62,587 bases of DNA from Patescibacteria group bacterium. Lineage in GTDB: Bacteria; Patescibacteriota; Patescibacteriia; 2-02-FULL-49-11. The translations under genes were made by a program, and so were the position numbers. The notes below the pieces were generated by a model. The model had not been told where the DNA came from. It made no database searches and worked only from the letters and a program-made list of their open reading frames with translations. Shown here in pieces: positions 18,791-40,512 of the stretch (positions are counted from its first letter, which is position 1; every line of letters begins with the position of its first letter). The stretch covers positions 1-62,587 of the forward strand of contig JBFLWV010000010.1 in NCBI GenBank assembly GCA_040757655.1, read 5' to 3'.

Positions 18791-19954
18791 TTAATAACAC
18801 GTTCCACTTTGGCTTCCCCCATCACACTGACATACACCAGAACAACAGTTATCTGTTTCGACCAATTCTGTATAAATCTGACCGGGGAACCGAACTCGGC
18901 ATGTAGGGGTGCACACTGCACCTGGTTGCTTCCAAGGCGTAGAGCGGAATTCCGGTTTCAGTTCACACGTTCCGAGTTGGCTACTAACAGCAACACAGGT
19001 ATAACACGATCGACACTCAGCTAAACTCGCCAGTCCAGATGTAACGCATGCACCATGCGGCTCCACAAGGCACTGATGAGGTATGATAGATTGATCGCAT
19101 ATCAATGGAAGATTGGCGAGAAATGTAGTACCGTCATAAGCGGGAAACATCGCACAATCACTGTTATTTTTACACTCTGTTCCGGGTTGTTTCCAGTCAC
19201 ATAAACCACGCCCGTCTGGCCCACCAGTGGTAAAATGTGTACATAAATTATAACTTGGATCACGTTTCTGGCAATCCGCAACCGTATTACACCCCTCCTC
19301 ACACTTCGCTATGTCGTGACTATATTTATGGCATACGCAGGGCTTGCTTGCACACTCATTGCATGGCGTGCCTGATTCTTTAAATCCTATAGGGACGCCC
19401 TCTTCATTCGTAAGAACGCACGTATCAGCCGATGTACCGGTAAGGGGCGAGACTTTTGCAGGAGTCGCGCACTTTTCAGCCTGTGCGTCCTTTCCCCCTT
19501 CTTTGTATTTCCTGCACGGCGTAATCCACCACGCGTCGTTTGAAAAAATGGTGGCAGGCTTGCCTTCAGTGGGTATGCCTTTAAGTGAAATAATGACCCA
19601 GTTAGGCCACACCCATGCGGCAAGCAGGATGATGAAGAGCCCCACCACTGTGCCGCTTATCATCTTTTTCCCGTGCTCCACTGCCTCTGCTTTGCCTTGG
19701 GAAATCAAGAGCTGAAATCCTCCATACACAAGCAACGCAAGGGCAATGGCGCCAGAAAGCGACAACAAAAACCGCATGCCCTTGCTTGCCATGAGCAAAA
19801 GGTCGCAGATTGAACACGCGCCGCAGTCGAAGCAATCCCGCGCCACCACTTTGTCGGAGAAGAAACTGAAGGCGTGGACGGGAAGCGCGGAAAACGCGAA
19901 GAAGCTGAGTACGAATACAAGGATTATTATATGTAAGAAGCGATAACGCGACAT
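18791..19954 (-). CDS. TrbC/VirB2-like T4SS pilin module fused to a large Cys-rich extracellular domain
   Basis: Signal-like N-terminus, then two hydrophobic helices separated by a QGKAEAVEHGKK loop (VirB2 topology), then about 250 aa with more than 30 Cys. The ATG at 19954 is preferred over the GTG at 19972. Confidence 0.55.
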   Translation of the reverse strand: MSRYRFLHIIILVFVLSFFAFSALPVHAFSFFSDKVVARDCFDCGACSICDLLLMASKGMRFLLSLSGAIALALLVYGGFQLLISQGKAEAVEHGKKMISGTVVGLFIILLAAWVWPNWVIISLKGIPTEGKPATIFSNDAWWITPCRKYKEGGKDAQAEKCATPAKVSPLTGTSADTCVLTNEEGVPIGFKESGTPCNECASKPCVCHKYSHDIAKCEEGCNTVADCQKRDPSYNLCTHFTTGGPDGRGLCDWKQPGTECKNNSDCAMFPAYDGTTFLANLPLICDQSIIPHQCLVEPHGACVTSGLASLAECRSCYTCVAVSSQLGTCELKPEFRSTPWKQPGAVCTPTCRVRFPGQIYTELVETDNCCSGVCQCDGGSQSGTCY

Positions 19955-19971
19955 AATTTTCCAAGTTACCA

Positions 19972-20103
19972 CAAATCCAAAACCAAAAATCCAAACACTA
20001 AAATGATATCTGTTAATCCAAAATTACCGATGGCCTTTCAACGAAATCCTTTTTGAATTGTTCTCTATCATTTTGGATTTTGGGGTTTGGATTTTGGATT
20101 GGC
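19972..20103 (-). mobile_element. Internal-deletion (miniature) derivative of the four-helix-bundle palindromic element
   Basis: Both ends align at high identity with the ends of the element at 40515..40995. The left junction is ...aaaattaccgatggcctttca and the right junction is acgaaatcctttttgaattgttctctatcattttgg.... The roughly 330-bp gene body is missing. Confidence 0.8.
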
Positions 20104-20229
20104 ATAGGAACAGTGGAGGTCTGACATTTGAGTTAATAATTCATTCCATGTGAAATCGTGTAGTAATAATACAAGGGTGATAGAAGAAGAGAGGTTAGTA
20201 GGGCAGCTATTCCTACGGCGGCATCGGCC

Positions 20230-21732
20230 CTATCGTCCATCATCAGCATCTCCTGAATTATTCTTCGGACAATTCTTGGTCTGATTGATATCATATACGC
20301 CCGGCGCGCAGCATGCTGATCGGTGAGTTCCGAGGTCGTTGCCTGATTCAAAATGCCACCATTCCTCACAGAATCTATCGAAACCCACTTCGTTCATCTT
20401 CGCCTGGAATTCCTTGACGACGGGGCCTGTGGGCGGAGTGCCGTCGGGCGGAGCGTAATTTCTGTTAAGCATATTGCACGCAGCGTCATTTGTTACCCCT
20501 GAAGGGAGACTGCCCTGACTTACTTCAAGACACACATCTACCGCAAATCCTGTCTGGTGAGGGGCGTCACATGAGGGTGTCGCCGCTTTCGCGCAGCCTG
20601 AACATTTATACGGACAGCTCACAGGTGTCGTAGCCACGCTGTAATCATAACATCCCCTTAATCCTGTCTGATTTGCCATGGTGCGGTACGCAGACATGAT
20701 GACAAGGGTGAATTTCACTTTCTCATTTTTCCAACTATTCTCTCCTTTAAGCCAATTTTCGAGCTTTTTATTATTAAGCATAGCTATCACTTGAGCCATA
20801 AGTCGCGGCGGCTGTTCCACAGCACCTGGATTATTATTAACAACGATAGACTTATTTGTGAACACCGTAGGATCTGCAATCGACAAAAAATTGGACGATG
20901 ATACGGTCTTAGTGCACTCTTGCGGACCGAAATTGATATCGATGTTTGCCGCTTGTGATTCTACATCTTCCAGAGTGCTCAATGCCGTGTCAAACTCCAC
21001 AAGGCGCGGGTTGATGGTGTAGAAGAGCAAGTATGAGGTGAGCGCAATGATGAAGCCGACAATGGCGCTCATAATGGATGATTTTGCTTCCGTGATCTTT
21101 TCCGGTGACCCGCCTGCCATCAAATACTTGAATCCCCCAATCATGATGCCAATGACTGCCAAGAGGCCGATGGAGGCAATGAGGAAATAATAGATGCCGG
21201 CAATATACTCGCCTATGGTTTTGCTATCCAAAGGAACCGGCTTCCCTGAAATAAAGCCCGTGCCTGGAATTGACACCTGGGGTTTAAATTGAATGGGATC
21301 ACGCTTGGAAGGCGGCACATAGACCTGCATCTTGTCACCAACAGGCGCAAACGCCTGCACTGATTGTTTTACGTCAGGACACGATGCTGCAGCACAATCA
21401 CCACTGTTTTGGTACGTGCACGCATAATACACGCCGTTTTGGGTTTTGATGCCGGTGACGCTAATCTTATTTCCTCCAACCTTGGGCTGAGGAGAGAGCG
21501 GTGCGAGATATTTAAAAGTCACTGGCCCATCGCATGCATCGGGACTAAGTGTTGGATAACAGACGTTCTGTAAGTAATCTTCCTTCTTTATACCTGTCGG
21601 CTGCTTATCATTTATCTTACACACGCAACACTGCGCATGGGCGGGAAGCGGAAAAAAATATGCACCAATCACCAAGAGTCCTGTAAGAAAGGTATATACT
21701 CTTTTACCAATTTGGTTATGATGCATAAACAT
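20230..21732 (-). CDS. Membrane protein with central VirB2-like pilin module and C-terminal M15 (VanY/LAS) peptidoglycan peptidase domain
   Basis: Pilin-like segment IAGIYYFLIASIGLLAVIGIMIGGFKYLMAGGSPEKITEAKSSIMSAIVGFIIALTSYLLF. Peptidase motifs SAYRT..Q, HQTGFAVDV and EWWHFE. Confidence 0.65.
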   Translation of the reverse strand: MFMHHNQIGKRVYTFLTGLLVIGAYFFPLPAHAQCCVCKINDKQPTGIKKEDYLQNVCYPTLSPDACDGPVTFKYLAPLSPQPKVGGNKISVTGIKTQNGVYYACTYQNSGDCAAASCPDVKQSVQAFAPVGDKMQVYVPPSKRDPIQFKPQVSIPGTGFISGKPVPLDSKTIGEYIAGIYYFLIASIGLLAVIGIMIGGFKYLMAGGSPEKITEAKSSIMSAIVGFIIALTSYLLFYTINPRLVEFDTALSTLEDVESQAANIDINFGPQECTKTVSSSNFLSIADPTVFTNKSIVVNNNPGAVEQPPRLMAQVIAMLNNKKLENWLKGENSWKNEKVKFTLVIMSAYRTMANQTGLRGCYDYSVATTPVSCPYKCSGCAKAATPSCDAPHQTGFAVDVCLEVSQGSLPSGVTNDAACNMLNRNYAPPDGTPPTGPVVKEFQAKMNEVGFDRFCEEWWHFESGNDLGTHRSACCAPGVYDINQTKNCPKNNSGDADDGR

Positions 21733-21740
21733 GGACAAGC

Positions 21741-21840
21741 TCAAAACTCAAATCTCAAAACGCAAAACCATAACTCAAAACCCATTAGCTTTGAGTTCTA
21801 AGATGTGGATTTGAGTTTTGAGTTCTGACATTTGAGTTAT
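21741..21840. repeat. Palindromic intergenic element of the caaaactcaaatctca type
   Basis: Left arm caaaactcaaatctcaaaacgcaaaaccataactcaaaa; right arm ctttgagttctaagatgtggatttgagttttgagttctgacatttgagttat. Confidence 0.8.
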
Positions 21841-22661
21841 AGTTTAATCAATCTCTCAATCTCCTCCGTTGTGATTCCTCCCGTTAATCTGTACTCTCCT
21901 ACAAACAAAGTAGGTATCCCTTCAATATCCAACGCCTGCGCCTCCTCCATGCCTTGGTTTACGAGATCCGTTGTTGCGCGCTCTTCCACGCAGCGGTTGA
22001 ATTCATTTAGATCTAGCCCAAGCTCTGTAATAATTGTACCATAATTTTGGGTTTTGGGTTTTGGGTTTTGGATTTCCACAATTGCCTCATGAAATTCCCA
22101 GAATTTCCCCTGGTTTTGGGCGCAGCGAGCAGCAAGCGCCGCAGGGCGGGAATCAGGGTTTAAGGGATTGGGGAAGTCCTTCCACACTAGATACGCGGAT
22201 GGTCGCAGATAAGACGCAGATGAACGCAGATCAGTTGACGCAGATCTACGCAGATCGTCACGCGTGGAATTATCGCGGATATACGCGGATACTTGTGTGA
22301 CCGCATTGCGGCATGTTTGGCTAAGGTGGTCGCAAAACAGCACCATTGCTACCTCACCCTCTCCCCATGTCGGATCAGTGGGCAGGATGGTGGGCGTGTA
22401 AGGCGTATCTTCGCGCAAAGGAGCAGAAGGTCTGACCAAGGTGATGAGAGGATCGCGAAAGGTGCCCTGTGAAATATTGTCGGAGATAGGGTAGTCAGAG
22501 ACAACCCCCCGTAGTAGAACTGATTCACTACGGGGCAAGTCTGACGCTATATTATATGAGGTAATAAAGCCAACCGCACTGCTGCCAAACGCAAGCGCGC
22601 CAAGACCGAGGGTGGCGAGGGAGAATAAAATAATAGTGAATGTATGCGAGGGTAGTTTCAT
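21837..22661 (-). CDS. DsbA-family thioredoxin-fold protein with atypical active site and two repeat-derived insertions
   Basis: N-terminal TM helix and a C-terminal IEGIPTLFVGEYRLTGG motif. The active-site position reads SQTC rather than CxxC. The ATG at 22661 is preferred. Confidence 0.6.
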   Translation of the reverse strand: MKLPSHTFTIILFSLATLGLGALAFGSSAVGFITSYNIASDLPRSESVLLRGVVSDYPISDNISQGTFRDPLITLVRPSAPLREDTPYTPTILPTDPTWGEGEVAMVLFCDHLSQTCRNAVTQVSAYIRDNSTRDDLRRSASTDLRSSASYLRPSAYLVWKDFPNPLNPDSRPAALAARCAQNQGKFWEFHEAIVEIQNPKPKTQNYGTIITELGLDLNEFNRCVEERATTDLVNQGMEEAQALDIEGIPTLFVGEYRLTGGITTEEIERLIKL

Positions 22662-22798
22662 AACTAAATGAGCACAAATCCAAATCCCAAAATAAGAGAA
22701 GTAACTCAAAACTCAAATCTCATAACTCAAAACCATAACGTAAAAACGATAAATCCCAAATCCCAATATCAAATTTCCAATAAAATCTCAAATCACAA

Positions 22799-23179
22799 CT
22801 AACTTTTAGATCTACTTCCGCTTAAAATTGAAGAAAATATAAAGACGAACTCCTGCGCTTCTTTCCACAAGACACGACATTGCGGTTGCGTTACTGGATT
22901 CGCCTTGGCAACCATGCGAAACCAATGCATACTTTCTTTTGCTTCTTTTCGCGCAATACCGATCTTGTGTTCGAAATCCTTCTTTGACTCTGCCGCGTCT
23001 GCCTCCATATAGTTGGCGCCAATACTCGTCGCAGCCCGAATAAGTTGGCTAATGAGAGGTGAATTGAGTGCGTTTCGTTCTAATCCTTGCACAAAGGTAA
23101 TCACGTTCTCTCCAAATCTTGCCGTACGCTCTATGAGGTCATATGTTTTTGTATTTGGGCTTGGGATTTTATTTGACAT
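22799..23179 (-). CDS. Four-helix-bundle protein (23S rRNA intervening-sequence protein family)
   Basis: Family motifs QLIRAATSIGANYMEA and KDFEHKIGIARKEAKESMHWF. Flanked by inverted simple-repeat arms. Confidence 0.85.
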   Translation of the reverse strand: MSNKIPSPNTKTYDLIERTARFGENVITFVQGLERNALNSPLISQLIRAATSIGANYMEADAAESKKDFEHKIGIARKEAKESMHWFRMVAKANPVTQPQCRVLWKEAQEFVFIFSSILSGSRSKS

Positions 23180-23280
23180 TGGGATTTTGAAATTGGGATT
23201 TACCCGCTGGTTCTGACATTTGAGTTCTCCTATGTGGGTATGACGTTCATCTCTATAAAGTTACTCTCCTTAAACACATC

Positions 23281-24561
23281 TCATTTTAATCTTACTCGAA
23301 ACACTTTCTCAAACGTCTCCAGGAAAAGTGAGGAGCTGTCCTGCGTAAGGTAGAGCTTACTCACGTCTTTCACGGTTTGCAGTCCTTCTTCCACTGGCAC
23401 GGCAATGCGGTGGTTGATGCCGCTGCCCAAGTCTGTCCGCCACAGGCTGTAGACGATGTTGCGCGCGGCATCCGGCACAAGCCCCGCACCAGGCGGGAGC
23501 TCGTCAGGCACGGCGCAATACACCGTCATGCTGTCTGCACCAAACGCGCAGCGATCTACCCACGTCGACAATCCCAATGCGTATTGACGCTGACCTGTCC
23601 GCTCTCCCCCAACGTCTGCCACCCACACCACAGGGATATACCCAGCGCTTGCAAGCACCGTGGAGTAGAGCATGCGCCTGCCGTCCGGAGACCAGATGCC
23701 GGAGAATTGCGACCCTTCCACTTCAAGCGACTTGAAATTCTCTCCCTGCATGCCGATGAAAAATATCTCTTCGCGGTCGATGCCAGAGGGCTTTCGGTAC
23801 GTGGCAACGACTTTGTAGTCAGGCGACCACTGGGGATCCACGAGCATCCCGCGGTCGCCGGTTGCCTGCACTGCTTTTGCGCCAGTCCCGTCCACATTGG
23901 AAACCACGACCCAGTTATCGCGCACGTCTCCGGTCTCTAATTTATAGGATAGAGCCCCCCCGTCTTGCCTGAAAGAGGGCGCCGTCAAGTCCCGCGGCAG
24001 CACCGCGCTCTTTTTGGTCGTGAAGTCGTAGTACACGTTCGAGCCGTCCTCATACTCAAGGATCGCGCTGTCCCCTTGCGGCGCCCATACGACATCTGCA
24101 ACGCCAGGGAAGGACTCATTAGAAAGCAGACGCTTTCCTGTCCCGTCAGCGCTTACGCGGTAAAATTTGGTATCAGTTGGATTGTAATAACTCAAACCCC
24201 CGCTAGGACTCACGTCAATGTTCATAGGGAACCCTTCCACAACCGCTTCCGCGCGCGTTTCTCTTCCGCGCGCCACGTCATCAACCACGGGCTGATAACC
24301 GGTACCTAAAGGCTGACCAGCAGTTTCTCCTCCGCGCTCAATCGGCAGTCCTCCCTCTGTAGGCCCTCGCACCTGCCCGCCTCTCCCTTCCTCGGCACCC
24401 GGCAAAGCGCCCACGCCGCCCCCTTCCCGCGGCGCGACGCCGGGTACGCTAAACAAACCAAACCGCCAGCCGATGAAAATAATGATTGCGGCGGTGCCGA
24501 TGACCCCAAACATGATGAGGCCGATGCCGATTAAAAATCTGACATTGAAACGTGGTAACAT
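23281..24561 (-). CDS. Membrane-anchored TolB-like beta-propeller protein (PD40/WD40-like repeats)
   Basis: N-terminal TM helix, a Gly-rich linker, and repeated WSPDG/WSPDY/WAPQGD motifs. Confidence 0.7.
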   Translation of the reverse strand: MLPRFNVRFLIGIGLIMFGVIGTAAIIIFIGWRFGLFSVPGVAPREGGGVGALPGAEEGRGGQVRGPTEGGLPIERGGETAGQPLGTGYQPVVDDVARGRETRAEAVVEGFPMNIDVSPSGGLSYYNPTDTKFYRVSADGTGKRLLSNESFPGVADVVWAPQGDSAILEYEDGSNVYYDFTTKKSAVLPRDLTAPSFRQDGGALSYKLETGDVRDNWVVVSNVDGTGAKAVQATGDRGMLVDPQWSPDYKVVATYRKPSGIDREEIFFIGMQGENFKSLEVEGSQFSGIWSPDGRRMLYSTVLASAGYIPVVWVADVGGERTGQRQYALGLSTWVDRCAFGADSMTVYCAVPDELPPGAGLVPDAARNIVYSLWRTDLGSGINHRIAVPVEEGLQTVKDVSKLYLTQDSSSLFLETFEKVFRVRLK

Positions 24562-24589
24562 AGTAAATCAAACACAAAATTACTAACTG

Positions 24590-24758
24590 TAAGATATAAA
24601 CTCAAAACTTAAATCTCAAAGCGCAAAACTATAACGCAAAACTAAAAAGCTTTGAGATTTGAGATATGGATTTGAGATTTGAGTTCTGACATTTGAGTTA
24701 TGCTGTTGCGGTTTGAAATTCTCGTTGGCATTTGAACTTTGATCTTTGGCATTTTCAA
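24590..24758. repeat. Compound palindromic intergenic simple-repeat element
   Basis: aaactcaaaacttaaatctcaaagcgcaaaactataacgcaaaac ... ctttgagatttgagatatggatttgagatttgagttctgacatttgagtt, plus a second arm pair. Confidence 0.75.
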
Positions 24759-25634
24759 TTAGCCGGGCAACTCCTTCTTCTCCTCCAGAGAGGACGGCTT
24801 GGTTTCCACTTCTGATCGGAAATAAATGTAGAGCACCGAAAAAGTCCAGATGGGGATAAAGCCAAGCCCCGGAATCATCTCTAAAAGGGCAGGCCCCAGT
24901 GAGCGGACAAGGCGCGTCGCGAAAGAGAGATTGTTCTTCCCCAACATCGCCCAAAACGTCAACCCGATCAAAGCGTCCACGATCCAATCAAGCCATGAGG
25001 CAAGCTCCAAGGTACCTACGTCCAGACAATCCTTAAACACTGCCATGCCGATGAGAATGAGCCACACCATGAATGAATGCGGCCGCGCCTGTATTCCATG
25101 CAATTTCTTCGGCCTTTTCTTAAATTTATCCCACGCGCCTTTTACGTTTCCCTTCATTAAATTTTTCTTCCATTCATTACGCTGCTGGTCATTCATTCGC
25201 TTAAACGCCGCTTCGCGTTCTGCTACACGGCTCATGGCGCCCGCGACGCCTTGGGGGCTCTTCGCCATGGCTCCGAAAGAATTTGCTAAAGGGCCTCCCC
25301 CCATCATTTTTGTCATACCCTTCCCCATTCTTCCCGCCGTCTTTCCAATACCAGCCATATGTTTCTCGTTCTGCTTCTGCCGCGCCAACTCATGCACATA
25401 CTGCTGCTGTTGACGCGCGGCATCATGCTCTGCCTGACGCTGGCGAATTTTATCCAGAAACCCCTGCTTCTCACCCTCCGGTGGACGTTGTCCCGTCGCG
25501 CTATAGCTTCGGTCCCCTCGATCCTTTGCCTGCATCACACCTCCTGCGCCTACCTGTCCTTGCTTGTACAAATTCTTCAATTCCTTCTTTCTATCCTTGC
25601 TGGGGATGTTTGGTTGTGCTTCCGTAGCGGGCAT
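24759..25634 (-). CDS. Hypothetical membrane protein (charged N-terminal half, 3-4 C-terminal TM helices)
   Basis: Long ORF in an operon context with hydrophobic helices in the last roughly 110 aa. No motif recognised. Confidence 0.55.
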   Translation of the reverse strand: MPATEAQPNIPSKDRKKELKNLYKQGQVGAGGVMQAKDRGDRSYSATGQRPPEGEKQGFLDKIRQRQAEHDAARQQQQYVHELARQKQNEKHMAGIGKTAGRMGKGMTKMMGGGPLANSFGAMAKSPQGVAGAMSRVAEREAAFKRMNDQQRNEWKKNLMKGNVKGAWDKFKKRPKKLHGIQARPHSFMVWLILIGMAVFKDCLDVGTLELASWLDWIVDALIGLTFWAMLGKNNLSFATRLVRSLGPALLEMIPGLGFIPIWTFSVLYIYFRSEVETKPSSLEEKKELPG

Positions 25635-25649
25635 ATAGATCTGCGAGAT

Positions 25650-25750
25650 AATTCAAAGGTCAAAAATCAAAACTTAAAATTGCAACTTAAAATCCAAAAG
25701 TTTTAACTTTTAACTTGAACCTTTGACTTTTGCCTTTTGAATTTTGACTT
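25650..25750. repeat. Palindromic intergenic simple-repeat element
   Basis: Left arm aattcaaaggtcaaaaatcaaaacttaaaattgcaacttaaaatccaaaag; right arm ttttaacttttaacttgaacctttgacttttgccttttgaattttgac. Confidence 0.75.
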
Positions 25751-26399
25751 ATGGTTCAGCTTTCTCCGGGCGCCAGTACGCGCCACTCACCTTCCACATC
25801 CCCTCCTCCTTAGCCATGCGCACTTCCAGCTCCTGATACCACACCCGCATATTTCCTCCAAGACCATGCGATTCCACGCGCTGGGTATTGACTATAAAAG
25901 TCGCCAAATCCTGGTTTGGGTTGAATTCATGCTCCTTCACGCTCAACGCTTTCGTGCGCACGCCAAGATAAAGGGTACGATCTGCCCCTGTTACGCCTTG
26001 CGCGCGCTCCTGCGTGAGGGCAAACGCTTGCATGCCTTTAGTCATGAAGGGTATGATGGTCTGTGCATGAAAAACGTCCTGCTGGTTTGAATAACTTCCC
26101 CATCGTTCTGCAAATACGAGCGCAAGCTGGGTGAGGTCGCTGTGAAGCTGCGCCTGTGGGTCGAGAGGTAGGGATGCTTTGGGTGTGGCAGGATTGGCGC
26201 GCGGCTGATTTTGCGGCGGCGCAGTAGGTTGTGGGGGGGTGGCAGCGGCTGGCTGCTGCTGCACTGACTCGATTAACGTTTTCGTATCCGTAGAGAGAGG
26301 CGCGCGCGTCCTGCGGAGTGCAAAAAAGTACGCGAACGCGGCGAGAAGAAGAATGCCGGAAAATATTAACAATAATCTTATACGAGAACTCATAAGCAC
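25749..26399 (-). CDS. Hypothetical secreted or membrane-anchored protein
   Basis: N-terminal TM/signal helix LLLIFSGILLLAAFAYFFAL, then a Pro/Gln-rich linker and a globular domain. Confidence 0.55.
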   Translation of the reverse strand: MLMSSRIRLLLIFSGILLLAAFAYFFALRRTRAPLSTDTKTLIESVQQQPAAATPPQPTAPPQNQPRANPATPKASLPLDPQAQLHSDLTQLALVFAERWGSYSNQQDVFHAQTIIPFMTKGMQAFALTQERAQGVTGADRTLYLGVRTKALSVKEHEFNPNQDLATFIVNTQRVESHGLGGNMRVWYQELEVRMAKEEGMWKVSGAYWRPEKAEP

Positions 26400-26482
26400 T
26401 TACTAATCCAAATCCCAAAAACCAAACGAAGAAATAACAACTCAAAACTCAAATCTCAGAACTCAAAGCCATAACGTAGAAC

Positions 26483-26908: not shown

Positions 26909-26941
26909 TTTGCATTTTGGGATTTGGATTTTGGATTAGGG

Positions 26942-28873: not shown

Positions 28874-28887
28874 GAACTTTAATGTAA

Positions 28888-32420: not shown

Positions 32421-32483
32421 ATCGAGCCTTTATTTACGTTCAACCATCCTTTATCCTCCTCTTTCTTCCTTTATATCATCCAA

Positions 32484-32558: not shown

Positions 32559-32817
32559 ACCCCGTTAGAGAAAGGAAACGCTTCAAGCGATTTTTAAGAT
32601 ACCGCTTCCCCATCCCAGTCTTCAGATATTTTTCCCGAACTCGCGCATCATGGTCATTAATGCAAGCTTCATAGTAAATCAACTGAAATGGACCCCTGCC
32701 TGTTGTCGATGTTACCTTTCCTTCATTGTGCTCCCTGAAGCGTTTCCGTAGATCGCCCGAAGAACCTGTATACCATTTCCTATCCTTTAAACTTTGCAAA
32801 ACGTACGTATAGACCAT
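32557..32817 (-). CDS. GIY-YIG nuclease superfamily protein (stand-alone, 86 aa)
   Basis: VYTYVL...KWYTGSSGDLRKRFREHNEG is the GIY-(10)-YTG...R..EH signature. Confidence 0.85.
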   Translation of the reverse strand: MVYTYVLQSLKDRKWYTGSSGDLRKRFREHNEGKVTSTTGRGPFQLIYYEACINDHDARVREKYLKTGMGKRYLKNRLKRFLSLTG

Positions 32818-32943
32818 AAACTTACTTCTCTAGCCCGTTAAAACTATTCCTCTTAATGCTCTCTACGCGACAATGTCATAAATAATATATGCCAGATATA
32901 TCTCGTGACTCAGCTCAACTTTTAACGGGCTCTAACGGGGTAA

Positions 32944-33045
32944 ATTCCACTTAAACGTCCCTGTCTCCAAATCCCCCCGCCTAAATCTCTGCAAGAAAAT
33001 TGGGCGGGCGTCGGTTAATTTTTAACGTTCTATCAAAATATGTTT
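32944..33045 (-). pseudogene. Copy 3 of the 3' coding end of the 474-aa gene (tail variant beta)
   Basis: Near-identical to 33693..33795. Translates KHILIER*KLTDARPIFLQRFRRGDLETGTFKWN. Confidence 0.75.
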
Positions 33046-33069
33046 CGGATTATCCACTGTGCCCGTACC

Positions 33070-33165
33070 TTGACAAAAAATTCATACGTGCTATACTTTT
33101 TTTGCCTTGCTAAGGCAAGGCGGAACCAAATTTTCCTCGGGTAACACCGAGGAACTTTTTATTTC
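33070..33165 (+). ncRNA. Predicted ~60-nt transcript (promoter + two hairpins + terminator) convergent on NYN gene 1
   Basis: TTGACA (33070-33075)-16 nt-TATACT (33092-33097). Then hairpin gccttgc-taag-gcaaggc, then ttcctcgg-gtaaca-ccgaggaa followed by ctttttattt. Confidence 0.55.
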
Positions 33166-33677
33166 ATCAACTCAAATTCATTCCGCAGTTTCTTTAAATC
33201 AATAAACTTCGCCTGTTGCACGAGATCCAGTGCGACACTCCCTTTCGTGGACATGACTACGCATCGTTTGCCATGCGCTTTAAGAAATTTGAGTAAAAAT
33301 GCAAAATCGCTGTCACCGGACAATAAAATGAATGACTGATAATCGAGAAGCGTATGAACCGCGTCAATGGTAAGCTCAACATCAAGATTGCCCTTATGGA
33401 ATCCTCCTTCATCGCGCAACTGATCCCTGATAAACTTCACCTTCTTTGTACGAACAGTATACCCTATCAAATCGAGAAAATCGAGAAAACGTCTCTGCTT
33501 ATCCGATGTGGGGTCATACGCGGTATAGAAATAACAGCGATGAAGTTCGGCTTCGCGTGCGAAGTAAACAAGCAACTTTTGAAAATCAATGCGCCAACCA
33601 AGCCTCTTTTGGGAATGATAAATATTAGAGGCATCAATGCATATTATTGTCTTTCCATGAACAAAGGTGGAAATCAT
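33159..33677 (-). CDS. NYN-domain (LabA/DUF88, PIN-like) putative RNase, copy 1
   Basis: Motifs IICIDASNIYH and ILLSGDSDFAFLLKFLKAHGKRCVVMS. The ATG at 33677 lies 11 nt after the stop of tail copy 2. Confidence 0.85.
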   Translation of the reverse strand: MISTFVHGKTIICIDASNIYHSQKRLGWRIDFQKLLVYFAREAELHRCYFYTAYDPTSDKQRRFLDFLDLIGYTVRTKKVKFIRDQLRDEGGFHKGNLDVELTIDAVHTLLDYQSFILLSGDSDFAFLLKFLKAHGKRCVVMSTKGSVALDLVQQAKFIDLKKLRNEFELMK

Positions 33678-33688
33678 AAATACGTTTA

Positions 33689-33952
33689 TTACGCATTCCA
33701 CTTAAACGTCCCGGTCTCCAAATCCCCCCGCCTAAATCTCTGCAAGAAAATTGGGCGGGCGTCGGTTAATTTTTAACGTTCTATCAAAATATGTTTCAAA
33801 AACGCTAAGAAATACTTCGGTGCAGCAGGATCTTTCAAAAATTCCTGCACGGGCGTTGCATGCAACGCCCCTACATTATCCCCTGATTCCTGATTCATAA
33901 TTCTTGATTCCCGCTTCTCAAGTTGATGTCTCCAATACTTCACGAATCGTTC
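33689..33952 (-). pseudogene. Copy 2 of the 3' coding end of the 474-aa gene (constant part + in-frame TAA + tail variant beta)
   Basis: ERFVKYWRHQLEKRESRIMNQESGDNVGALHATPVQEFLKDPAAPKYFLAFLKHILIER*KLTDARPIFLQRFRRGDLETGTFKWNA*. The first roughly 170 bp is close to identical to 35770..35945. Confidence 0.8.
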
Positions 33953-33983
33953 TGGTCGGCTATCCATACACGGATGTCCCCAC

Positions 33984-34068
33984 TTGACAAACATTTACAA
34001 TACTATATACTGTAAATGTGATTTGACTCTGGAGTGCCTTGTAAAAGGCAGCTCCAGATTCTTTTTTA
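33984..34068 (+). ncRNA. Predicted ~50-nt transcript convergent on NYN gene 2
   Basis: TTGACA (33984-33989)-16 nt-TATACT (34006-34011). Then hairpin ctggagtgcc-ttgtaaaa-ggcagctccag followed by attctttttt. Confidence 0.55.
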
Positions 34069-34575
34069 TCTCGCAATTTCCGTCTTAAGTTTCCGAAAAT
34101 CGACAAACTTCGCAACTTCCAACAACTCTCGCGCTATATGACCGCGGGTGGACATCACGATCACTCTTTTCCCTTTTTCCTTCACGCGCTCCAATACCGG
34201 CGCGAAATCACTGTCGCCAGAGACAAGAATAGCCGTATCATAACGATCTGCGAGCTCCATCATCTCTAACGCGAGTTCAATATCAAGGCTTCCCTTCCGT
34301 TTGCTCGTGCCATCACTTGAATTGATTTCCTTAATCACTTTTGTGCGTACGATGTAGCCGTTGATCTCCAGCATGTCCAGAAACTTGCGCTCGCCAACCT
34401 TGTTGTCATTGAATGCTGTGTACGCGAAGCACTTCACCGAAACACCGCACTCATGCTTAAAATACGCCATTAATTTCTCATACCCAACGCTCCATCCGAG
34501 CGTACGTCTCGTGAAAAAGACGTTCGCCACATCAATGAATACGTATACTCGCCCTTGAATGTATTTTGAAATCAT
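34066..34575 (-). CDS. NYN-domain (LabA/DUF88, PIN-like) putative RNase, copy 2
   Basis: Motifs VFIDVANVFF and ILVSGDSDFAPVLERVKEKGKRVIVMS. The ATG at 34575 lies 11 nt after the TGA of tail copy 1. Confidence 0.85.
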   Translation of the reverse strand: MISKYIQGRVYVFIDVANVFFTRRTLGWSVGYEKLMAYFKHECGVSVKCFAYTAFNDNKVGERKFLDMLEINGYIVRTKVIKEINSSDGTSKRKGSLDIELALEMMELADRYDTAILVSGDSDFAPVLERVKEKGKRVIVMSTRGHIARELLEVAKFVDFRKLKTEIAR

Positions 34576-34586
34576 ATCATTTACAT

Positions 34587-34742
34587 TCACGCATTCCACC
34601 TGAATTCTCCCGTTTCCAGATCGCCGTATGCCAAGTGTGCGTACTCCTCATCTCCGGCTTTGCGGCATTCATTGCTTAAGGTCAAAACCGCCAGTTTCGC
34701 GCTTTCTTCAGTTAATTTTAAACGATCAATCGGGATATACCT
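34587..34742 (-). pseudogene. Copy 1 of the 3' coding end of the 474-aa gene (tail variant alpha, last 47 codons)
   Basis: Translates IDRLKLTEESAKLAVLTLSNECRKAGDEEYAHLAYGDLETGEFRWNA*. Near-identical to 35619..35765. Confidence 0.85.
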
Positions 34743-34756
34743 CAAGATTATTAACA

Positions 34757-34846
34757 TTGACAAAAAAAATCATAATGCTATGCTGTCAATGTACCTCCCT
34801 TATCTAAGGCTCTCTCGAGTACAGGTAACGGGGGTGTTTTTATTAT
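34757..34846 (+). ncRNA. Predicted ~55-nt transcript convergent on the DUF3800 gene
   Basis: TTGACA (34757-34762)-16 nt-TATGCT (34779-34784). Then a structured segment ending in gggggtgtttttatt, about 10 nt before the DUF3800 stop. Confidence 0.45.
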
Positions 34847-34855
34847 GAACAGTTC

Positions 34856-35467
34856 TTATAAGTGCAATAATATCTTCTCTTTATTCATGATCATTTCGTG
34901 ATAGTGGGGATCGCCCCGCTCATACTCTCTAAAAATACTCCCCGCAATCATATCTGCTATCTGGATCATCGCATTGTTCCGAGAACGTTGCTGCCTGATT
35001 TTTCTAACCACATTCTTGCTCATATACTGTTTAAGCACCGCATTGAATTCTCGCCGATGGATTTGAGCTGACGCTTCGTCAATGACGAGGACAGATTCAA
35101 CTATCGGCGGATCGTTATCATAAAACAATCTTCTCACTGCTTCGCAGTAGAGCTGATGGGGATGGAACTTCAGTGCTGGCGCGGTAAGTTCACGTTTATC
35201 AACAACGACTGCCTTATAGCGGATTAACCGCTCTGATAACGTACGCAAAAACGCTTCGCGAAATGTACGCTTGCATCGTGAAAACTTAAACTCAAAATCC
35301 TGCGCCAATCGCAATTCCAACCTTAACCTTTCCATTGTAATCTCAATCTCCTTCGCCTCGCATCCAAGAAACACCGCTGCCACTACAAAAAATCTCGAGG
35401 ATCCGCGTTCAAACTTGAAACCACAATCACTTGCTTCGTCTATCCAGAGATATGATATTGTCTCCAT
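34856..35467 (-). CDS. DUF3800-family protein
   Basis: N-terminus YLWIDEASDCGFKFERGSSRFFVVAAVF and C-terminal IQIADMIAGSI are typical DUF3800 motifs. The ATG at 35467 is preferred. Confidence 0.7.
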   Translation of the reverse strand: METISYLWIDEASDCGFKFERGSSRFFVVAAVFLGCEAKEIEITMERLRLELRLAQDFEFKFSRCKRTFREAFLRTLSERLIRYKAVVVDKRELTAPALKFHPHQLYCEAVRRLFYDNDPPIVESVLVIDEASAQIHRREFNAVLKQYMSKNVVRKIRQQRSRNNAMIQIADMIAGSIFREYERGDPHYHEMIMNKEKILLHL

Positions 35468-35618
35468 AATTATAGCACAATAATCTATCTCATATCCTAG
35501 CTGCAATTTCCTTAAGTCATACAAGCATCACTCACTCGCGATCGCGAGTCTTTGATTCCTTTCGGATTTAAGCCCTTCAGACACATGTCTGCGTAAGTCC
35601 GCGCAAGTCCGCGTTTAC

Positions 35619-37043
35619 TCACGCATTCCATTTGAATTCCCCAGTCTCCAGATCGCCGTATGCCAAGTGTGCGTACTCCTCATCTCCGGCTTTGCGGCAT
35701 TCATTGCTTAAGGTCAAAACCGCCAGTTTCGCGCTTTCTTCTGTTAATTTTAAACGATCAATCAAAACATGTTTCAAAAACGCTAAGAAATACTTCGGTG
35801 CGGCAGGATCTTTCAAAAATTCCTGTACGGGCGTTGCATGCAACGCCCCTACATTATCCCCTGATTCCTGATTCATAATTCTTGATTCCCGCTTCTCAAG
35901 TTGATGTTTCCAATACTTCACAAACCTTTCCGACTTGCCAAATGACTGTTTGAGAGACCCACGCCGGGCCAATCGCCAAAGACAAGTCAATACTCCGACT
36001 ATATCACCTTTGTTCACGGCGCTGTAAAACCCATTCAGCTCTTCCTCTTCGTTCGCTCCACTCCCGCCTGCTTGTTCCAACTGCGCCAACGCCGGAGCGA
36101 TCACGGTATCCAAAGTCCATTGCTCATACTTCTTTATCATCTTATTCACCATAAAGTCCCTCTTCGCTTCCCCGCCCAAATTTTCAACAATATCCGCCGG
36201 CGCCTCCTCTCCCAGCGCATGCAAAATCACTTCCCGCATCTCCTGCAATCCTTTCTTAATTTTTACTTCATCAATCTCTTTGATCGGCTCAAATTTCCCT
36301 TCCCGAATTGTTCCCTTTATATCAGACTCATCAATAGGTATCGCATCCTCCATTCCTTCTAGAGTAAGAGACGATTTGAGTAAATGTCCATAAAGGGTAA
36401 TAAGCGTACGTAATTGTTCCTGTTGCTTAGTAGGTAAACGTCGTGCCTGTTCATCGCTGGATAGAAAACTATTGACATCAAGCGCTGTATATATTTTTTT
36501 CCCTAATTTCACAACCACCCGTTGTAACCACTGTCCAATCGTTAAAGCACTATTCATCAACACTCTCTCTCCTAGCAACGGCGCTATCTGACCAAACGGC
36601 TCCTGATTCTTCTCCAATGCTTCCCGTAAAACAACTTTCAGTCGATCACGATCATCTAGAAGCGGGTAAGTGAGAAACCAAGCTTTAACTTTCTCCCAAA
36701 TATCAAACCCCTCGCTCTCAAGCGCCTGAACTAGATGATGCGCAAAGAGATCAATCGCTTCAGTGTCACTCTTCACGGTATGAAATACCGTCCATCGCAA
36801 AATTACCATCATGCGTTGCAACGCGTGATACTGCTCGGGATAACGAATGGCGAACTCAGGAGATGCGTGCAAAAATGCATTTAAATCGTTGAGTAACGCC
36901 GCCGATTCTGCCACATATCCGAAAAACATCATTTCCTCTGCACGTCGCTTCAAACCGTCCAAAAATTCGACGTCACCAAGTTTATCCCCTACTTGCGTAA
37001 GAAGATCCGTTAGAGAAACTGATTTAAGAAACGCTGTACTCAT
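35619..37043 (-). CDS. Hypothetical 474-aa protein whose 3' end is the recurrent cassette boundary
   Basis: Long ORF immediately downstream of the VirB6-like gene. No motif recognised. Confidence 0.7.
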   Translation of the reverse strand: MSTAFLKSVSLTDLLTQVGDKLGDVEFLDGLKRRAEEMMFFGYVAESAALLNDLNAFLHASPEFAIRYPEQYHALQRMMVILRWTVFHTVKSDTEAIDLFAHHLVQALESEGFDIWEKVKAWFLTYPLLDDRDRLKVVLREALEKNQEPFGQIAPLLGERVLMNSALTIGQWLQRVVVKLGKKIYTALDVNSFLSSDEQARRLPTKQQEQLRTLITLYGHLLKSSLTLEGMEDAIPIDESDIKGTIREGKFEPIKEIDEVKIKKGLQEMREVILHALGEEAPADIVENLGGEAKRDFMVNKMIKKYEQWTLDTVIAPALAQLEQAGGSGANEEEELNGFYSAVNKGDIVGVLTCLWRLARRGSLKQSFGKSERFVKYWKHQLEKRESRIMNQESGDNVGALHATPVQEFLKDPAAPKYFLAFLKHVLIDRLKLTEESAKLAVLTLSNECRKAGDEEYAHLAYGDLETGEFKWNA

Positions 37044-37059
37044 AACAATACGTGCTTAA

Positions 37060-40000
37060 TCAAGCAAGTGTGGGGCCGTAACCAATCGCTGATGCGCCTG
37101 CATAGAATTTCGCGCCCACACCTCTTAAGATTCCACGAAACTCCCTGAACTCACTATCCGGATCGATACCGCCATAATCTCTAACCGTCCCTATTCTCGA
37201 ATTCATCAATCGTTCAAATTCGTCATAGAGTTTCCGTTGAGGAGCGGTAAGTGTGTCGCGCATTGCCATAAGAATATTCCTATTTTCGTCCGTCCATATA
37301 TTTAGCATGACGTTAGGATTCATGCGGTTGCGCTGTACTAACTCTACCAAACCTTGCAAACTATTACGAATTTCCAATAATCCGAACTCATTAAGCTGCG
37401 CCCTTCTGCCTTTACTGTGATCATTGGAGTCACGCCAGTATTCTGTAAACCACCCTCCCAAACGGTTGGCATTACGGATCCGGTGCTCAGAATCACGTTT
37501 CGAAGTCTCTATCAATACCCGCGCCCGCTGGCCCGCAAGATCGCGCTGGAAATACCTGCCGTTTTCCACACCCACTGACTGCGCCAACGACCAATGATTA
37601 ATGCCCTGGGCAATATCGGAAAGATTATTTTGGAATGCGTAAGCCCATTGCGGGTTCATTCCCATATGCTTAATAAAATTCTTATTGATAAATGTATTTA
37701 GTCCGTTCACGTCCGACTGATCTTGCCCGGGAATACCGAACTCGTTAACCAATTCGTTCAAATGCCCGACCTCAGCGGCGTGCTGAGCAATGCCTGCGGC
37801 AAGAAACCGATCGTGATTCGCCGTGGCGTTACGGAAAAGTGAGATAAGCTCGTCTTCGTTGTCAGTGACGATTTTACGCGCCTCTTCCATGATTTTTGAC
37901 CGTGCGTCGCGCAGGGCATAATAATCCTGCGGAATATACTGCTCAATCTTGTTTTTCTGCTCGGTTAATTCCCCGACCGTCTTTCTCATTGCCTCTACCT
38001 CGCGTCCAATCCGCTCACGATCCGCTTCGGAATAATTACGATTTGCCTGTCTGCTATAACGCTTCGCTTCTTTCTTGAGCTCACTAAATATATCTTTATC
38101 TTTATTCTCCTCCTGCGCTTGCTGTAATGCTTCCGCAACTTTTGGCGCAAGCTTGTTTTTCTGCACATCCGATAATCCGCCGCCCTTCCCCAATAAAAGC
38201 GCGATTTTATCCAAATCATCCTGAATAAGCTCGAGCTCACGCAATTCTTCCGCGCTTACCTTTCCACCTTTATCTTGCTTATCTTTGATGCTCGCCTGCA
38301 TGGTAATCCTCTTCAACTCTAACTCCTTTTCTTTTTGACCATATGCTGCTTTCTGTGCCTCTGACAATCCGCCGTTCTTCACGCGCATCGCTTCTTCGCT
38401 CTTCTCTCTTGCTTTCTTGGCATAATACTTTCGAGCTATATTCCGAAGCTCATTGTATTTTTTGTCTTTCTTCATTTCTTTCACAGCATTATAATCATCT
38501 TCGGCTTTTTTCTTTGCAACCTGCGCTGTACCGCGCTCTTGACTTAACTCATTGAGATTTTCGTGTCTCTTCTTTACATTCTCTTCCTTCTGAAAATCTT
38601 CTTTCTCTGCTTTTAATGCTTTGTCCTGTACATTGAGCAATTCCTGCATTTGAGCCGTATCGCTTACCGGTCGAATCTGATCATAATGCTTAGCGATCTG
38701 ATTAGATATGCGGGTAAAAAGCTTGTCATATTCTTCAGTATTACCCTTCCCTTTAGCTTCCATATCCTTTAATGCCTTCAACCCCTCCTGCCAGCCAGAT
38801 AATTTCCTTAAATTTGCCTCCAGCTCTTTAGGTAAAGCATCCTTGTCTGTTTCAAACCTCTCGAGTTCCATAACATCTGCGTCCAATTTTTTAAACTTAG
38901 CCTCCGCCTGATCAAATTCCATCTTCATGTCCTGCTCAAACGCTTCAGGCGCATTCAAGCCTTTCCGATCGTCCTCGCGCTCGGCGAGCTGCTTCGCCAA
39001 ATCTTTAATTTGTTCATCCAGTTGCGCCATCAATGGCTCATTTGGTCTCCACCAGGCAGATAGCAATTTATTATAGCCCAAACCCGCAAAAAGCTGCTCA
39101 TGACCGGCATCGGACGATAGCATGCCGGCGAGACGGAAAAGACTGTTAACTACACGTCCGCGTTTAGGATCGCCTTTCATGAGCTCCAAAGACATCATTT
39201 TAGCAGCCACCTCTTCCTTCTCTTTCTTGCGCTTGCGTGATTCCATAAAACGTTTAGGCAGATGGAAGGGATTTAAGTCAATGCCGGCGAGCCCGCGTCG
39301 TTTAATCTCGCCTGTCTTCTCATCCTGTTTCCAACTTGCGAGCCAACCTGCTTCTCCTGCGTGTATTTTTTCCGCCAAGACCGCAGGTGCCTTGAGGAAA
39401 GCAAGACTCGCTGCGCCAACTCCTAATTTCTGCAACTTCCCCGACACTTGGCCGGCAAACTGCCCGCCCATGACCCCGAGCTGCTGGGTAAGGGTGAGGG
39501 ACCCTAAAAGGAGCGCGATCACGATGATGAAATTGATGAGGTTGTCGGTGGCGCCTGCTTCCGTACCATAGGGGTTATACTCTTCAATCGTCACTTTTTC
39601 GCCTGCCAAGAACTTCCCGAACGTGCTGTTTTCCCGCCGGGTAAAAAGCCCCTGGTTCATGATGGCAAACGAGAGCCAGAGGAAAAACGCAAGCACCGGG
39701 CCCACGATCAGGTGCGACGTGAACTTTTCCCACCACTGGGACGCATATTTCTGCCCGCCGGGGAAAGACGAGAGGAGATAGGCAAGCGGCGAGAGCACGG
39801 TAAGGGTCCAGAGCATGATGACCCGGAACACCAACACGAGGATAAACACAAGCAACACCCCTGCGGTGATTGCGGTAATGGCAAGCCCGAGAAGCAGCGC
39901 GCCAAATATTTTTAGGCTCTCAATATCCTGGCCTTTTTCAACCGCTTTTCGCGTGAAACTTAAAATGTTCCCAATACCCGTGGCATCCACGATATTCCCT

Positions 40001-40512
40001 CCGGCAATGTCCCGGAAAGAATTCACGAACGTGAGCATGACGATCTGGGCAAAGTCAATGAAGAGCCCGGTGATCATCTTTGAAAAATTGATGAGCACCG
40101 CCATGATGAGGAGCTTCGGGAGAAGCGCGCGGTACGAGTACGACTCCACCTTGAAGATGGTGGCAACCGCGATCACCAAGAGGATCACGATGAAAAACAT
40201 GTTGGACACATCCCGCACCACAGTCCACCCGAGCTGCACCCCGTATTCGGTCGCAAAATCGTTATAGCTTGCCACCATCACGAGGATGGGAATGAGCGAC
40301 TTGGTCACCAGAAGCCCGAAGACCCAGACGAGGGCGTAAATGATTGCGGTAATGATCGAAGCAACCATGGTCTCTGCCGCATTTCCCAACCAGCCCCAAT
40401 CTGCGCTTATCCCTTCATGTGCATACAAAAACACGCCCCCGAGCGCGAGCGCCATAACGAGGAGAAGGGAGGAACGTTGCGGTATGAATTTTTTAACAAA
40501 GCCGCCTGTCAT
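37060..40512 (-). CDS. Large polytopic membrane protein (VirB6/TrbL/PrgH-like N-terminal ~400 aa) with long Lys/Glu coiled coil and unknown C-terminal domain
   Basis: At least 7 hydrophobic helices in residues 1-400, and about 450 aa of KE-rich heptad-like sequence. Sits in a T4SS gene neighbourhood. Confidence 0.55.
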   Translation of the reverse strand: MTGGFVKKFIPQRSSLLLVMALALGGVFLYAHEGISADWGWLGNAAETMVASIITAIIYALVWVFGLLVTKSLIPILVMVASYNDFATEYGVQLGWTVVRDVSNMFFIVILLVIAVATIFKVESYSYRALLPKLLIMAVLINFSKMITGLFIDFAQIVMLTFVNSFRDIAGGNIVDATGIGNILSFTRKAVEKGQDIESLKIFGALLLGLAITAITAGVLLVFILVLVFRVIMLWTLTVLSPLAYLLSSFPGGQKYASQWWEKFTSHLIVGPVLAFFLWLSFAIMNQGLFTRRENSTFGKFLAGEKVTIEEYNPYGTEAGATDNLINFIIVIALLLGSLTLTQQLGVMGGQFAGQVSGKLQKLGVGAASLAFLKAPAVLAEKIHAGEAGWLASWKQDEKTGEIKRRGLAGIDLNPFHLPKRFMESRKRKKEKEEVAAKMMSLELMKGDPKRGRVVNSLFRLAGMLSSDAGHEQLFAGLGYNKLLSAWWRPNEPLMAQLDEQIKDLAKQLAEREDDRKGLNAPEAFEQDMKMEFDQAEAKFKKLDADVMELERFETDKDALPKELEANLRKLSGWQEGLKALKDMEAKGKGNTEEYDKLFTRISNQIAKHYDQIRPVSDTAQMQELLNVQDKALKAEKEDFQKEENVKKRHENLNELSQERGTAQVAKKKAEDDYNAVKEMKKDKKYNELRNIARKYYAKKAREKSEEAMRVKNGGLSEAQKAAYGQKEKELELKRITMQASIKDKQDKGGKVSAEELRELELIQDDLDKIALLLGKGGGLSDVQKNKLAPKVAEALQQAQEENKDKDIFSELKKEAKRYSRQANRNYSEADRERIGREVEAMRKTVGELTEQKNKIEQYIPQDYYALRDARSKIMEEARKIVTDNEDELISLFRNATANHDRFLAAGIAQHAAEVGHLNELVNEFGIPGQDQSDVNGLNTFINKNFIKHMGMNPQWAYAFQNNLSDIAQGINHWSLAQSVGVENGRYFQRDLAGQRARVLIETSKRDSEHRIRNANRLGGWFTEYWRDSNDHSKGRRAQLNEFGLLEIRNSLQGLVELVQRNRMNPNVMLNIWTDENRNILMAMRDTLTAPQRKLYDEFERLMNSRIGTVRDYGGIDPDSEFREFRGILRGVGAKFYAGASAIGYGPTLA

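Follow-up and report, generated by a model that had tools for sequence, protein, structure and literature searches.

A type IV secretion system locus in a Patescibacteria group bacterium that very probably represents the known chromosomal, non-conjugative system of the lineage

The locus and its assignment

Contig JBFLWV010000010.1 of the Patescibacteria group bacterium assembly GCA_040757655.1 carries a gene set resembling a type IV secretion system (T4SS). The window analyzed here is this entire contig (C10; 62,587 nucleotides), and the assembly comprises 1.19 Mb in 70 contigs with a completeness of 98.9%. We conclude that the locus is very probably the known chromosomal, non-conjugative T4SS of Patescibacteria and is ordinary for its lineage. 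In a survey of this system, an MPF_FATA-related clade of VirB4 was described for Patescibacteria, in which TrsD was the commonest companion of VirB4, along with PrgI/VirB3 and VirB6, and VirB2-like pilins lay near virB4 (Quinonero-Coronel et al. 2025; PMC12102498). In the same survey, about two type IV coupling proteins (T4CPs) were found per genome, seldom near virB4, relaxases were almost absent, and the neighborhood in class ABY1 comprised comF, recG, and radA. Because the features of the present locus match this survey point by point, it is considered an ordinary member of the described system.

A preliminary description, made from the sequence without database searches, had named a T4SS-like gene set interleaved with selfish cassettes and had seen neither a coupling protein nor a relaxase. 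The named gene set was borne out, with all genes present on the minus strand where they had been placed, and almost every assignment was upheld by Pfam or NCBIfam (Table 1). Every long open reading frame (ORF) between 17287 and 57837 is on the minus strand.

The VirB4, TrsD-like, and PrgI/VirB3 core

The VirB4 ATPase scored 350.3 bits against the NCBIfam model of the CD1110-family VirB4 (NF045971; cut-off, 325), which confirmed its identification, and 104 bits against Pfam P-loop_TraG. Its closest solved structure was a monoderm VirB4 (PDB 4AG5; E value, 4.5e-47), while TrwK was matched only with an E value of 2e-8. Its assignment to the monoderm, MPF_FATA-related type is drawn from these profile and PDB matches. 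The profile alignment of VirB4 starts at model position 185; the N-terminal domain that VirB4 lacks is, in effect, provided by the TrsD-like protein. This second protein, previously seen as a stand-alone VirB4-N-like protein, matched the N-terminal parts of VirB4 models and TrsD, as well as the N-terminal part of Pfam TraC_F_IV. Its gene adjoined virB4 in all of the 80 related loci used for the synteny counts. These loci were fetched via VirB4, which matches hundreds of Patescibacteria metagenome-assembled genome (MAG) loci at ~70% identity, and they carry names such as Patescibacteria, Falkowbacteria, Kuenenbacteria, Komeilibacteria, and Veblenbacteria. The PrgI/VirB3 assignment also survived the profile search, with 36.4 bits against Pfam PrgI (cut-off, 27), and the protein was found in 76 of the 80 loci.

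Gene order and inheritance

Across the 80 related Patescibacteria loci, one gene order recurred: giant protein, VirB6, 474-aa protein, 432-aa protein, PrgI, TrsD, VirB4, VirB8-like protein, (291-aa protein), pilin, propeller, DsbA, and pilin. One flank of the locus holds clpB, comF, tRNAs, and recG, and the other holds two giant surface-protein genes, ksgA, sua5, leuS, and tsaD. Of the related loci, 39 contained recG and 20 contained comF, with side and orientation kept; the identity of recG among them was 41 to 53%, less conserved than VirB4. When 31 relatives of the same class were examined, VirB4 was present in 30, at 63 to 73% identity across the class and 91 to 92% within the genus, and was single-copy in 29 of the 30 carriers. 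The conserved gene order, the position relative to recG and comF, and the mostly single-copy VirB4 thus indicate a vertically inherited core organelle in the chromosome of a Patescibacteria genome, not a mobile element. In one relative (G028), two identical VirB4 copies were found in inverted orientation, 8 kb apart (C2:664496-666298 and 674248-676050).

Coupling proteins, relaxases, and mobility

The Pfam scan of the window covered all non-overlapping ORFs of at least 119 aa and several shorter ones. No T4CP, relaxase, or integrase was found among the ORFs scanned, with four ORFs of 86 to 108 aa (1092-1388, 6417-6743, 14544-14804, and 46168-46431) left out. For the window, this agrees with the preliminary description; for the genome, the absence of a coupling protein failed to hold, since two VirD4-like T4CP genes are located on contigs C30 and C42. 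The first (C30:3504-6065; 854 to 862 aa) scored above the cut-offs of TrwB_AAD_bind (45.5 bits), T4SS-DNA_transf (36.0 bits), and TraG-D_C (31.8 bits) and lies between cysS/corA and dnaX. The second, a paralogue (C42:21591-25119), was read as two adjacent ORFs and is surrounded by secDF, a sigma factor, and a two-component system. It consists of a 462-aa N-terminal membrane part and a 674-aa ATPase part ending in a Cys4 zinc-ribbon-like motif. Homologues of the T4CPs were present in 31 of 31 relatives. The genome thus encodes T4CPs, far from virB4.

A genome-wide relaxase search with seven Pfam models (MOBP, MOBT, MOBV, MOBF, MOBQ, MOBH, and MOBC, with MOBM not covered) gave no significant match. 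PF03432, PF02486, PF01076, PF08751, PF03389, and PF07514 were without a match, and PF13814 (Replic_Relax; 16.9 bits, sub-threshold) was the sole relaxase-model signal. A VirD4 and relaxase pair just outside the window, which would have marked an ordinary integrated conjugative element, was not encountered: the T4CPs are unlinked, on other contigs, and the seven models detected no relaxase. It could still be argued that the locus is part of such an element, with its relaxase and coupling protein beyond the contig, because the VirB4 family in question (CD1110, CTn2) was first defined on conjugative elements and adjacency past the contig ends is not visible in a genome of 70 contigs. However, both T4CP genes stand among housekeeping genes, the locus has recG, clpB, ksgA, and leuS on its flanks, its synteny and position are conserved class-wide, and its GC content (~0.44 to 0.54 along the window) is similar to that of other contigs. 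Neither a linked relaxase and T4CP nor an integrase with att sites was found. Given the lack of a significant match to the seven relaxase models, the housekeeping flanks, the gene order in 80 loci, and VirB4 in 30 of 31 relatives, the probability of a conjugative element is close to nil, and we rejected it, in line with the preliminary description.

Extended VirB6-like and VirB8-like proteins

The 1150-aa protein, which had been taken for VirB6-like and polytopic with a long coiled coil, has ~7 predicted membrane helices, long helices at residues 418 to 960, and a confidently modeled C-terminal domain. Its AlphaFold2 model, built from 35 sequences, had a mean predicted local distance difference test (pLDDT) score of 68, with 70 to 87 in the membrane domain and >90 in the C-terminal domain. 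The top eight PDB fold matches of the membrane domain were all R388 TrwI/VirB6 (E values, 6e-3 to 0.5; probability, 0.75 to 1.0). This N-terminal membrane domain was strongly conserved across >1,200 Patescibacteria proteins, and among the matches listed, a precomputed TrbL_3 annotation (PF19590) was present on 13 of 120 homologues. The gene was syntenic in 43 of the 80 related loci. As judged from its predicted structure, the protein is likely, though not proven, to be what PMC12857230 calls an "extended VirB6".

The 216-aa protein had been left unassigned. Its AlphaFold2 model (mean pLDDT, 85.9) shows a helix at residues 3 to 27, followed by three helices and four long strands, that is, the N-terminal helix and NTF2-like domain of the VirB8 family within a T4SS operon. 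Foldseek matched it to CagV (template modeling [TM] score, 0.68), PrgL, TraE, Agrobacterium VirB8, R388 chain 8rtd_Y, and IcmL-like proteins. In 69 of the 80 related loci, its gene immediately follows virB4. On the basis of this predicted model, the protein is VirB8-like. In the survey, VirB8 homologues were almost confined to class ABY1 (PMC12102498), which fits this assignment. At the sequence level, profile searches gave no VirB8 match, and PDB sequence-profile searches with the family alignments of the 1150-aa, 216-aa, and 432-aa proteins returned coiled-coil or noise matches only.

Pilins and other exported proteins

Both VirB2/TrbC-like pilin modules of the preliminary description were recovered, the 504-aa protein with 40.2 bits against Pfam T4SS_pilin (cut-off, 26.6) and the 393-aa protein with 25.7 bits, just under the cut-off. 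VirB2-like pilins are thus present near virB4. The Cys-rich C-terminal domain of the 393-aa pilin contains 32 Cys. In the 504-aa protein, the pilin hairpin is fused to an M15/VanY-type domain with intact zinc and catalytic motifs (SAYR at 351, HQTGFAVD at 396, and EWWH at 461, corresponding to SxYR, HxxGxAxD, and ExWH), and from its sequence a VirB1-type role is probable. Only 23 homologues of this fusion were found at an E value of <1e-5 in a large protein collection. Several of them are annotated with PF18895 plus PF01427 or PF02557, and one pilin is fused to C39 peptidase domains. The fusion is a rare, minor addition to the described system.

Six pilin-hairpin genes were detected in the genome, two in the locus and four elsewhere (T4SS_pilin, 31 to 45 bits). 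Three are short (one on C20 and two on C34), and the other three encode modular proteins of 393 aa, 504 aa, and ~1,700 aa. The longest of them is a giant surface protein, pilin-anchored and encoded away from virB4 (C62:15063-20288, minus strand); its signal peptide and T4SS_pilin hairpin (45 bits) are followed by a Gly linker, Big_5/TIG domains, and 60 Cys.

The DsbA-like protein was supported by Thioredoxin_4 (52.4 bits) and DSBA (42 bits) and was syntenic in 28 of the 80 related loci. Its active-site position reads CDHLSQTC (Cx6C, not CxxC). The closest relatives share Cx6C, as CDLFSPLC, while most related loci have CPxC there. With 20 to 75 Cys each, the exported proteins encoded here are highly Cys-rich; thus, the obvious role to infer for a DsbA-like oxidoreductase would be their oxidation. 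The propeller gene was syntenic in 26 of the 80 loci.

The 1644-aa giant protein has one N-terminal hydrophobic segment and a weak CBM_4_9 match, and in 21 of the 80 related loci a homologue is encoded upstream of virB6. The second giant protein (1645 aa) had no homologue in these loci. A paralogous origin of the two was ruled out, as their sequences are unrelated.

An alternative is a machine for pilus or adhesin display only, which would assemble pilin-anchored modules and translocate no substrate, the remote T4CPs being unrelated to it. In its favor, three of the six pilin-hairpin genes are fused to large extracellular modules, and giant Cys-rich surface proteins occur with a DsbA-like protein in the locus; the T4CP is, moreover, not essential in S. 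epibionticum (PMC12102498). However, the full translocon set of VirB3, VirB4, the likely VirB6, and the VirB8-like protein is conserved, and the T4CPs are both universal in the class and conserved there. Display without translocation is therefore regarded as doubtful.

Three further proteins had no family match in profile searches. The 432-aa gene is directly upstream of prgI in 73 of the 80 related loci, and its product matched no PDB entry either. The 474-aa protein was detectable in 17 and the 291-aa protein in only 3 of the 80 loci, each at the same position. The conserved accessory gene set is a minor addition to the described system.

Proposed function of the locus

The Patescibacteria T4SS traces back to monoderm (MPF_FATA) conjugation machinery, with loss of the DNA-processing functions. 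In the model proposed here, VirB4, the TrsD-like protein, and VirB3, together with VirB6 and the VirB8-like protein, would form a membrane translocon, which may pull pilin hairpins from the membrane and build a surface fiber displaying the fused modules. The M15 domain could open the peptidoglycan locally, and the DsbA-like protein would oxidize the Cys-rich exported domains. The machine would then mediate contact-dependent interaction with a host cell, not conjugation. This view is adopted by analogy with Southlakia epibionticum, in which the T4SS and a pilin array are essential for epibiotic growth, independently of comEC (PMC12857230). The preliminary description had suggested a contact or effector apparatus, as expected for an episymbiont with a small genome, and such a host-interaction reading would agree with both papers (PMC12102498 and PMC12857230).

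A machine for DNA uptake or release, similar to Helicobacter ComB or archaeal Ced and acting together with type IV pilus genes, comF, and recG, was also considered. A type IV pilus cluster is present on the same contig (193-9830), consisting of pilM, two unknown genes, pilB, a 218-aa ORF (3850-4506), a pilT-like gene, pilC, and a pilin gene. The adjacency to recG and comF is kept in relatives and noted for ABY1 (PMC12102498), and VirB4 weakly matches CedB (E value, 7e-12). However, the CedB match is far weaker than that to CD1110, and comF and recG do not belong to the operon and are read from the other strand. In S. epibionticum, deletion of comEC ended competence and left viability unaffected, while the T4SS was essential (PMC12857230). 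Thus, DNA uptake is quite improbable, and host contact remains the preferred function.

As an extension, the VirB2-type hairpin of ABY1 might serve as a general T4SS carrier for enzymatic or adhesive modules. Here, the M15 domain on the fiber would breach the wall of the host rather than that of its own cell, assisted by the Cx6C DsbA variant and the accessory set (VirB8-like, propeller, 432-aa, 474-aa, and giant Cys-rich proteins). We regard this extension as speculative and rather unlikely.

Several points weigh against the overall assignment. The TrsD-like protein matched the N-terminal parts of VirB4 models (E value, 4.7e-8) and TrsD (NF041427; E value, 1e-4) only below the curated cut-offs. 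The 1150-aa protein had no direct Pfam or NCBIfam match at full length, with the N-terminal 400 residues alone, or with TrbL_3 run against the genome, and its TrwI/VirB6 fold match was modest (E value, 6e-3; TM score, 0.38 to 0.49). The fold of the 216-aa protein was matched equally well by generic NTF2 proteins (ARC6 and the CaMKII hub). The earlier M15 claim stood by its motifs and not by its profile scores, which were sub-threshold (Peptidase_M15, 22.9 bits; VanY, 19.4 bits). Likewise, the TolB-like propeller was supported by a TolB propeller match (E value, 6.8e-7) far below the cut-off, with PD40/TolB and other Pfam propeller signals being weak. Newer relaxase classes, such as MOBM, fell outside the relaxase search. 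Finally, placement in class ABY1 was deduced from how related MAGs are named and from the comF/recG neighborhood rather than a phylogeny.

Among T4SSs, that of Patescibacteria was the first found to be essential to the bacterium carrying it; the present locus is simply a further example. Its value lies in a clean map of the ABY1-class version that counts the conserved neighbor genes, in support from predicted models for the VirB8-like subunit and the extended VirB6, and in a rare pilin-peptidase fusion that is biochemically testable.

Palindromes and inserted cassettes

Selfish cassettes had been described among the T4SS genes, and the IVP, NYN, DUF3800, and GIY-YIG insertions indeed vary among relatives. 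The position of IVP genes in the operon differs among related loci, and NYN and DUF3800 genes occurred in none and GIY-YIG in three of the 80 loci. Thus, these genes and the heptamer palindromes are variable insertions, not parts of the machine. Since all five IVP genes of the genome are on this contig, they were considered as dedicated T4SS parts; this was rejected, because their counterparts in relatives are spread across many contigs and shift their operon position. They nevertheless seem enriched near virB4, as a rough count gave ~9 IVP genes within 5 kb of virB4 in relatives (G001, G002, G003, G009, G026, and G000), compared with ~1 expected from ~90 IVP genes and genomes of ~1 Mb.

IVP genes in the window sit inside long inverted arms of 7-nt repeats (22750-23202, 26405-26930, 40533-40982, and 52224-52671), and the 5' arm overlaps the start codon. 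The arms around the first gene pair at -58 kcal/mol, and those at 26405-26465 and 26870-26930 pair at -44 kcal/mol. Arms flanking an IVP gene do not fold alone. In related loci, IVP genes are framed likewise, with different repeat units. In the deleted remnant, 20034-20134 is 81% identical to 40916-41016, and tblastn places the IVP N terminus at 20034-20105.

The near-identical translation-initiation region reported for three consecutive genes, within intergenic palindromes, was verified by sequence comparison and folding. tttacattaaggaaggtATG is identical at the starts 29668 and 30218, and the start at 28873 has tttacattaaagttcATG. The shared region forms part of the 3' arm in long hairpins built from 7-nt units (z-scores of the three hairpins, -3.8, -4.3, and -2.3). 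The gene-free hairpins at 28880-28975, 29678-29790, and 30228-30347 resemble emptied IVP cassettes. Arrays of the palindrome 7-nt units were also found within essential genes, namely leuS (55760-55792 and 56434-56462) and tsaD (61964-61997), and 173 such arrays were counted genome-wide. The only Rfam matches in the window were three tRNAs, with none for the palindromes. A promoter and terminator consensus scan of 21500-41300 gave counts not above those of shuffled sequence.

The last 26 to 106 codons of the 474-aa gene (...AYGDLETGEFKWNA*) recur four more times downstream (32484-35930). After each repeated 3' end, a different small nuclease-type gene (DUF3800, NYN, NYN, or GIY-YIG) or an IVP-like gene follows, a pattern that suggests serial insertions at a single hot spot. 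An AbiEii-type nucleotidyltransferase toxin gene (45 bits), preceded by a small ORF, occupies 17287-18385, in the interval that separates recG from the first pilin gene; this toxin gene occurred in only 1 of the 80 related loci.

Table 1. Features of the T4SS locus and its surroundings in the window
Feature	Coordinates	Strand	Remarks
comF-like gene	12646-13413	+	ComF TIGR00201, E value 4e-23
recG	15008-17215	+	RecG domains (Pfam)
Modular VirB2-like pilin, 393 aa	18791-19972	-	Signal peptide, two-helix pilin hairpin, ~260-aa Cys-rich C-terminal domain
Intergenic palindrome with internally deleted IVP cassette remnant	19973-20229	-	Hairpin z-score -2.8
Pilin hairpin and M15/VanY-type peptidoglycan peptidase fusion, 504 aa	20230-21744	-	
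Membrane-anchored DsbA/thioredoxin-like protein	21837-22709	-	
IVP (four-helix-bundle, 23S_rRNA_IVP) cassette in inverted heptamer-repeat arms	22799-23179	-	PF05635, 57.5 bits; TIGR02436
Membrane-anchored beta-propeller (PD40/TolB-like) accessory protein	23281-24561	-	
291-aa protein	24759-25634	-	Charged N-terminal half, C-terminal membrane helices
VirB8-like protein, 216 aa (predicted model)	25749-26399	-	N-terminal membrane helix, linker, NTF2-like domain
IVP cassette in inverted repeat arms	26483-26908	-	PF05635, 89 bits
VirB4 ATPase, monoderm (MPF_FATA, CD1110) type	26942-28894	-	Probable start ATG 28873
TrsD-like stand-alone VirB4 N-terminal domain protein	28982-29698	-	Probable start ATG 29668
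PrgI/VirB3-like membrane protein	29790-30248	-	Probable start ATG 30218
432-aa conserved cytoplasmic protein	30352-31650	-	Pro-rich middle, conserved C-terminal domain
Inserted cassette block	31647-35524	-	IVP-like 31647-32420; GIY-YIG 32557-32817; NYN 33159-33701; NYN 34066-34599; DUF3800 34856-35524 (Pfam)
474-aa conserved cytoplasmic protein	35619-37043	-	Between virB6 and the 432-aa gene
Likely extended VirB6-like protein, 1150 aa	37060-40512	-	Polytopic N-terminal domain, long helical middle, globular C-terminal domain
IVP cassette in inverted repeat arms	40583-40987	-	PF05635, 67 bits; arms 40533-40582 and 40933-40982
Giant membrane-anchored Cys-rich surface protein, 1644 aa	41117-46051	-	75 Cys; syntenic with the T4SS
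Second giant Cys-rich surface protein, 1645 aa	46810-51747	-	71 Cys

Comparison with known systems

The closest known systems are the Patescibacteria-clade chromosomal T4SSs, covered by the survey (Quinonero-Coronel et al. 2025; PMC12102498) and including that of Southlakia epibionticum ML1 (Wang et al. 2023). As in other Patescibacteria T4SSs, a FATA-related VirB4 is adjoined by a TrsD-like protein and accompanied by PrgI/VirB3, a likely VirB6, and VirB2-like pilins near virB4. The present locus also shares the lack of a relaxase, T4CPs distant from virB4, a housekeeping chromosomal context with the comF and recG of ABY1, and a peptidase near virB4 with a probable VirB1-like role. Unlike those systems, it contains two pilin genes rather than a six-gene array, with four more dispersed, and its pilins carry either an M15 peptidase or a Cys-rich domain as fusion partner. 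IVP, NYN, GIY-YIG, and DUF3800 insertions also separate the genes here. The Cx6C DsbA-like, propeller, 432-aa, and 474-aa proteins are conserved neighbors without mention in the survey (PMC12102498).

The MPF_FATA systems (pCF10 Prg/Pcf, pIP501/pGO1 Tra/Trs, and CTn2 CD1110) share with the locus a VirB4 above the CD1110-family cut-off and the absence of the outer-membrane core parts VirB7, VirB9, and VirB10. The order PrgI-TrsD-VirB4-VirB8-like is similar to that of TraC-TraD-TraE in pIP501/pGO1 and PrgH-PrgI-PrgJ...PrgL in pCF10. In contrast to these systems, the locus has no relaxase or oriT, no adjacent T4CP, VirB2-type pilins, and chromosomal vertical inheritance, and its hydrolase is a pilin-fused M15 peptidase, not an SLT/CHAP VirB1.

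Compared with R388 Trw and Agrobacterium VirB (MPF_T), VirB5, VirB7, VirB9, VirB10, and VirB11 are missing, the VirB4 is distant, as reflected by the TrwK match (E value, 2e-8), and the VirB6-like 1150-aa protein carries an extension of ~800 residues. What the locus has in common with MPF_T is a VirB2-type pilin, a predicted membrane domain of the 1150-aa protein similar to TrwI/VirB6, and a 216-aa protein whose predicted fold is similar to VirB8-family structures.

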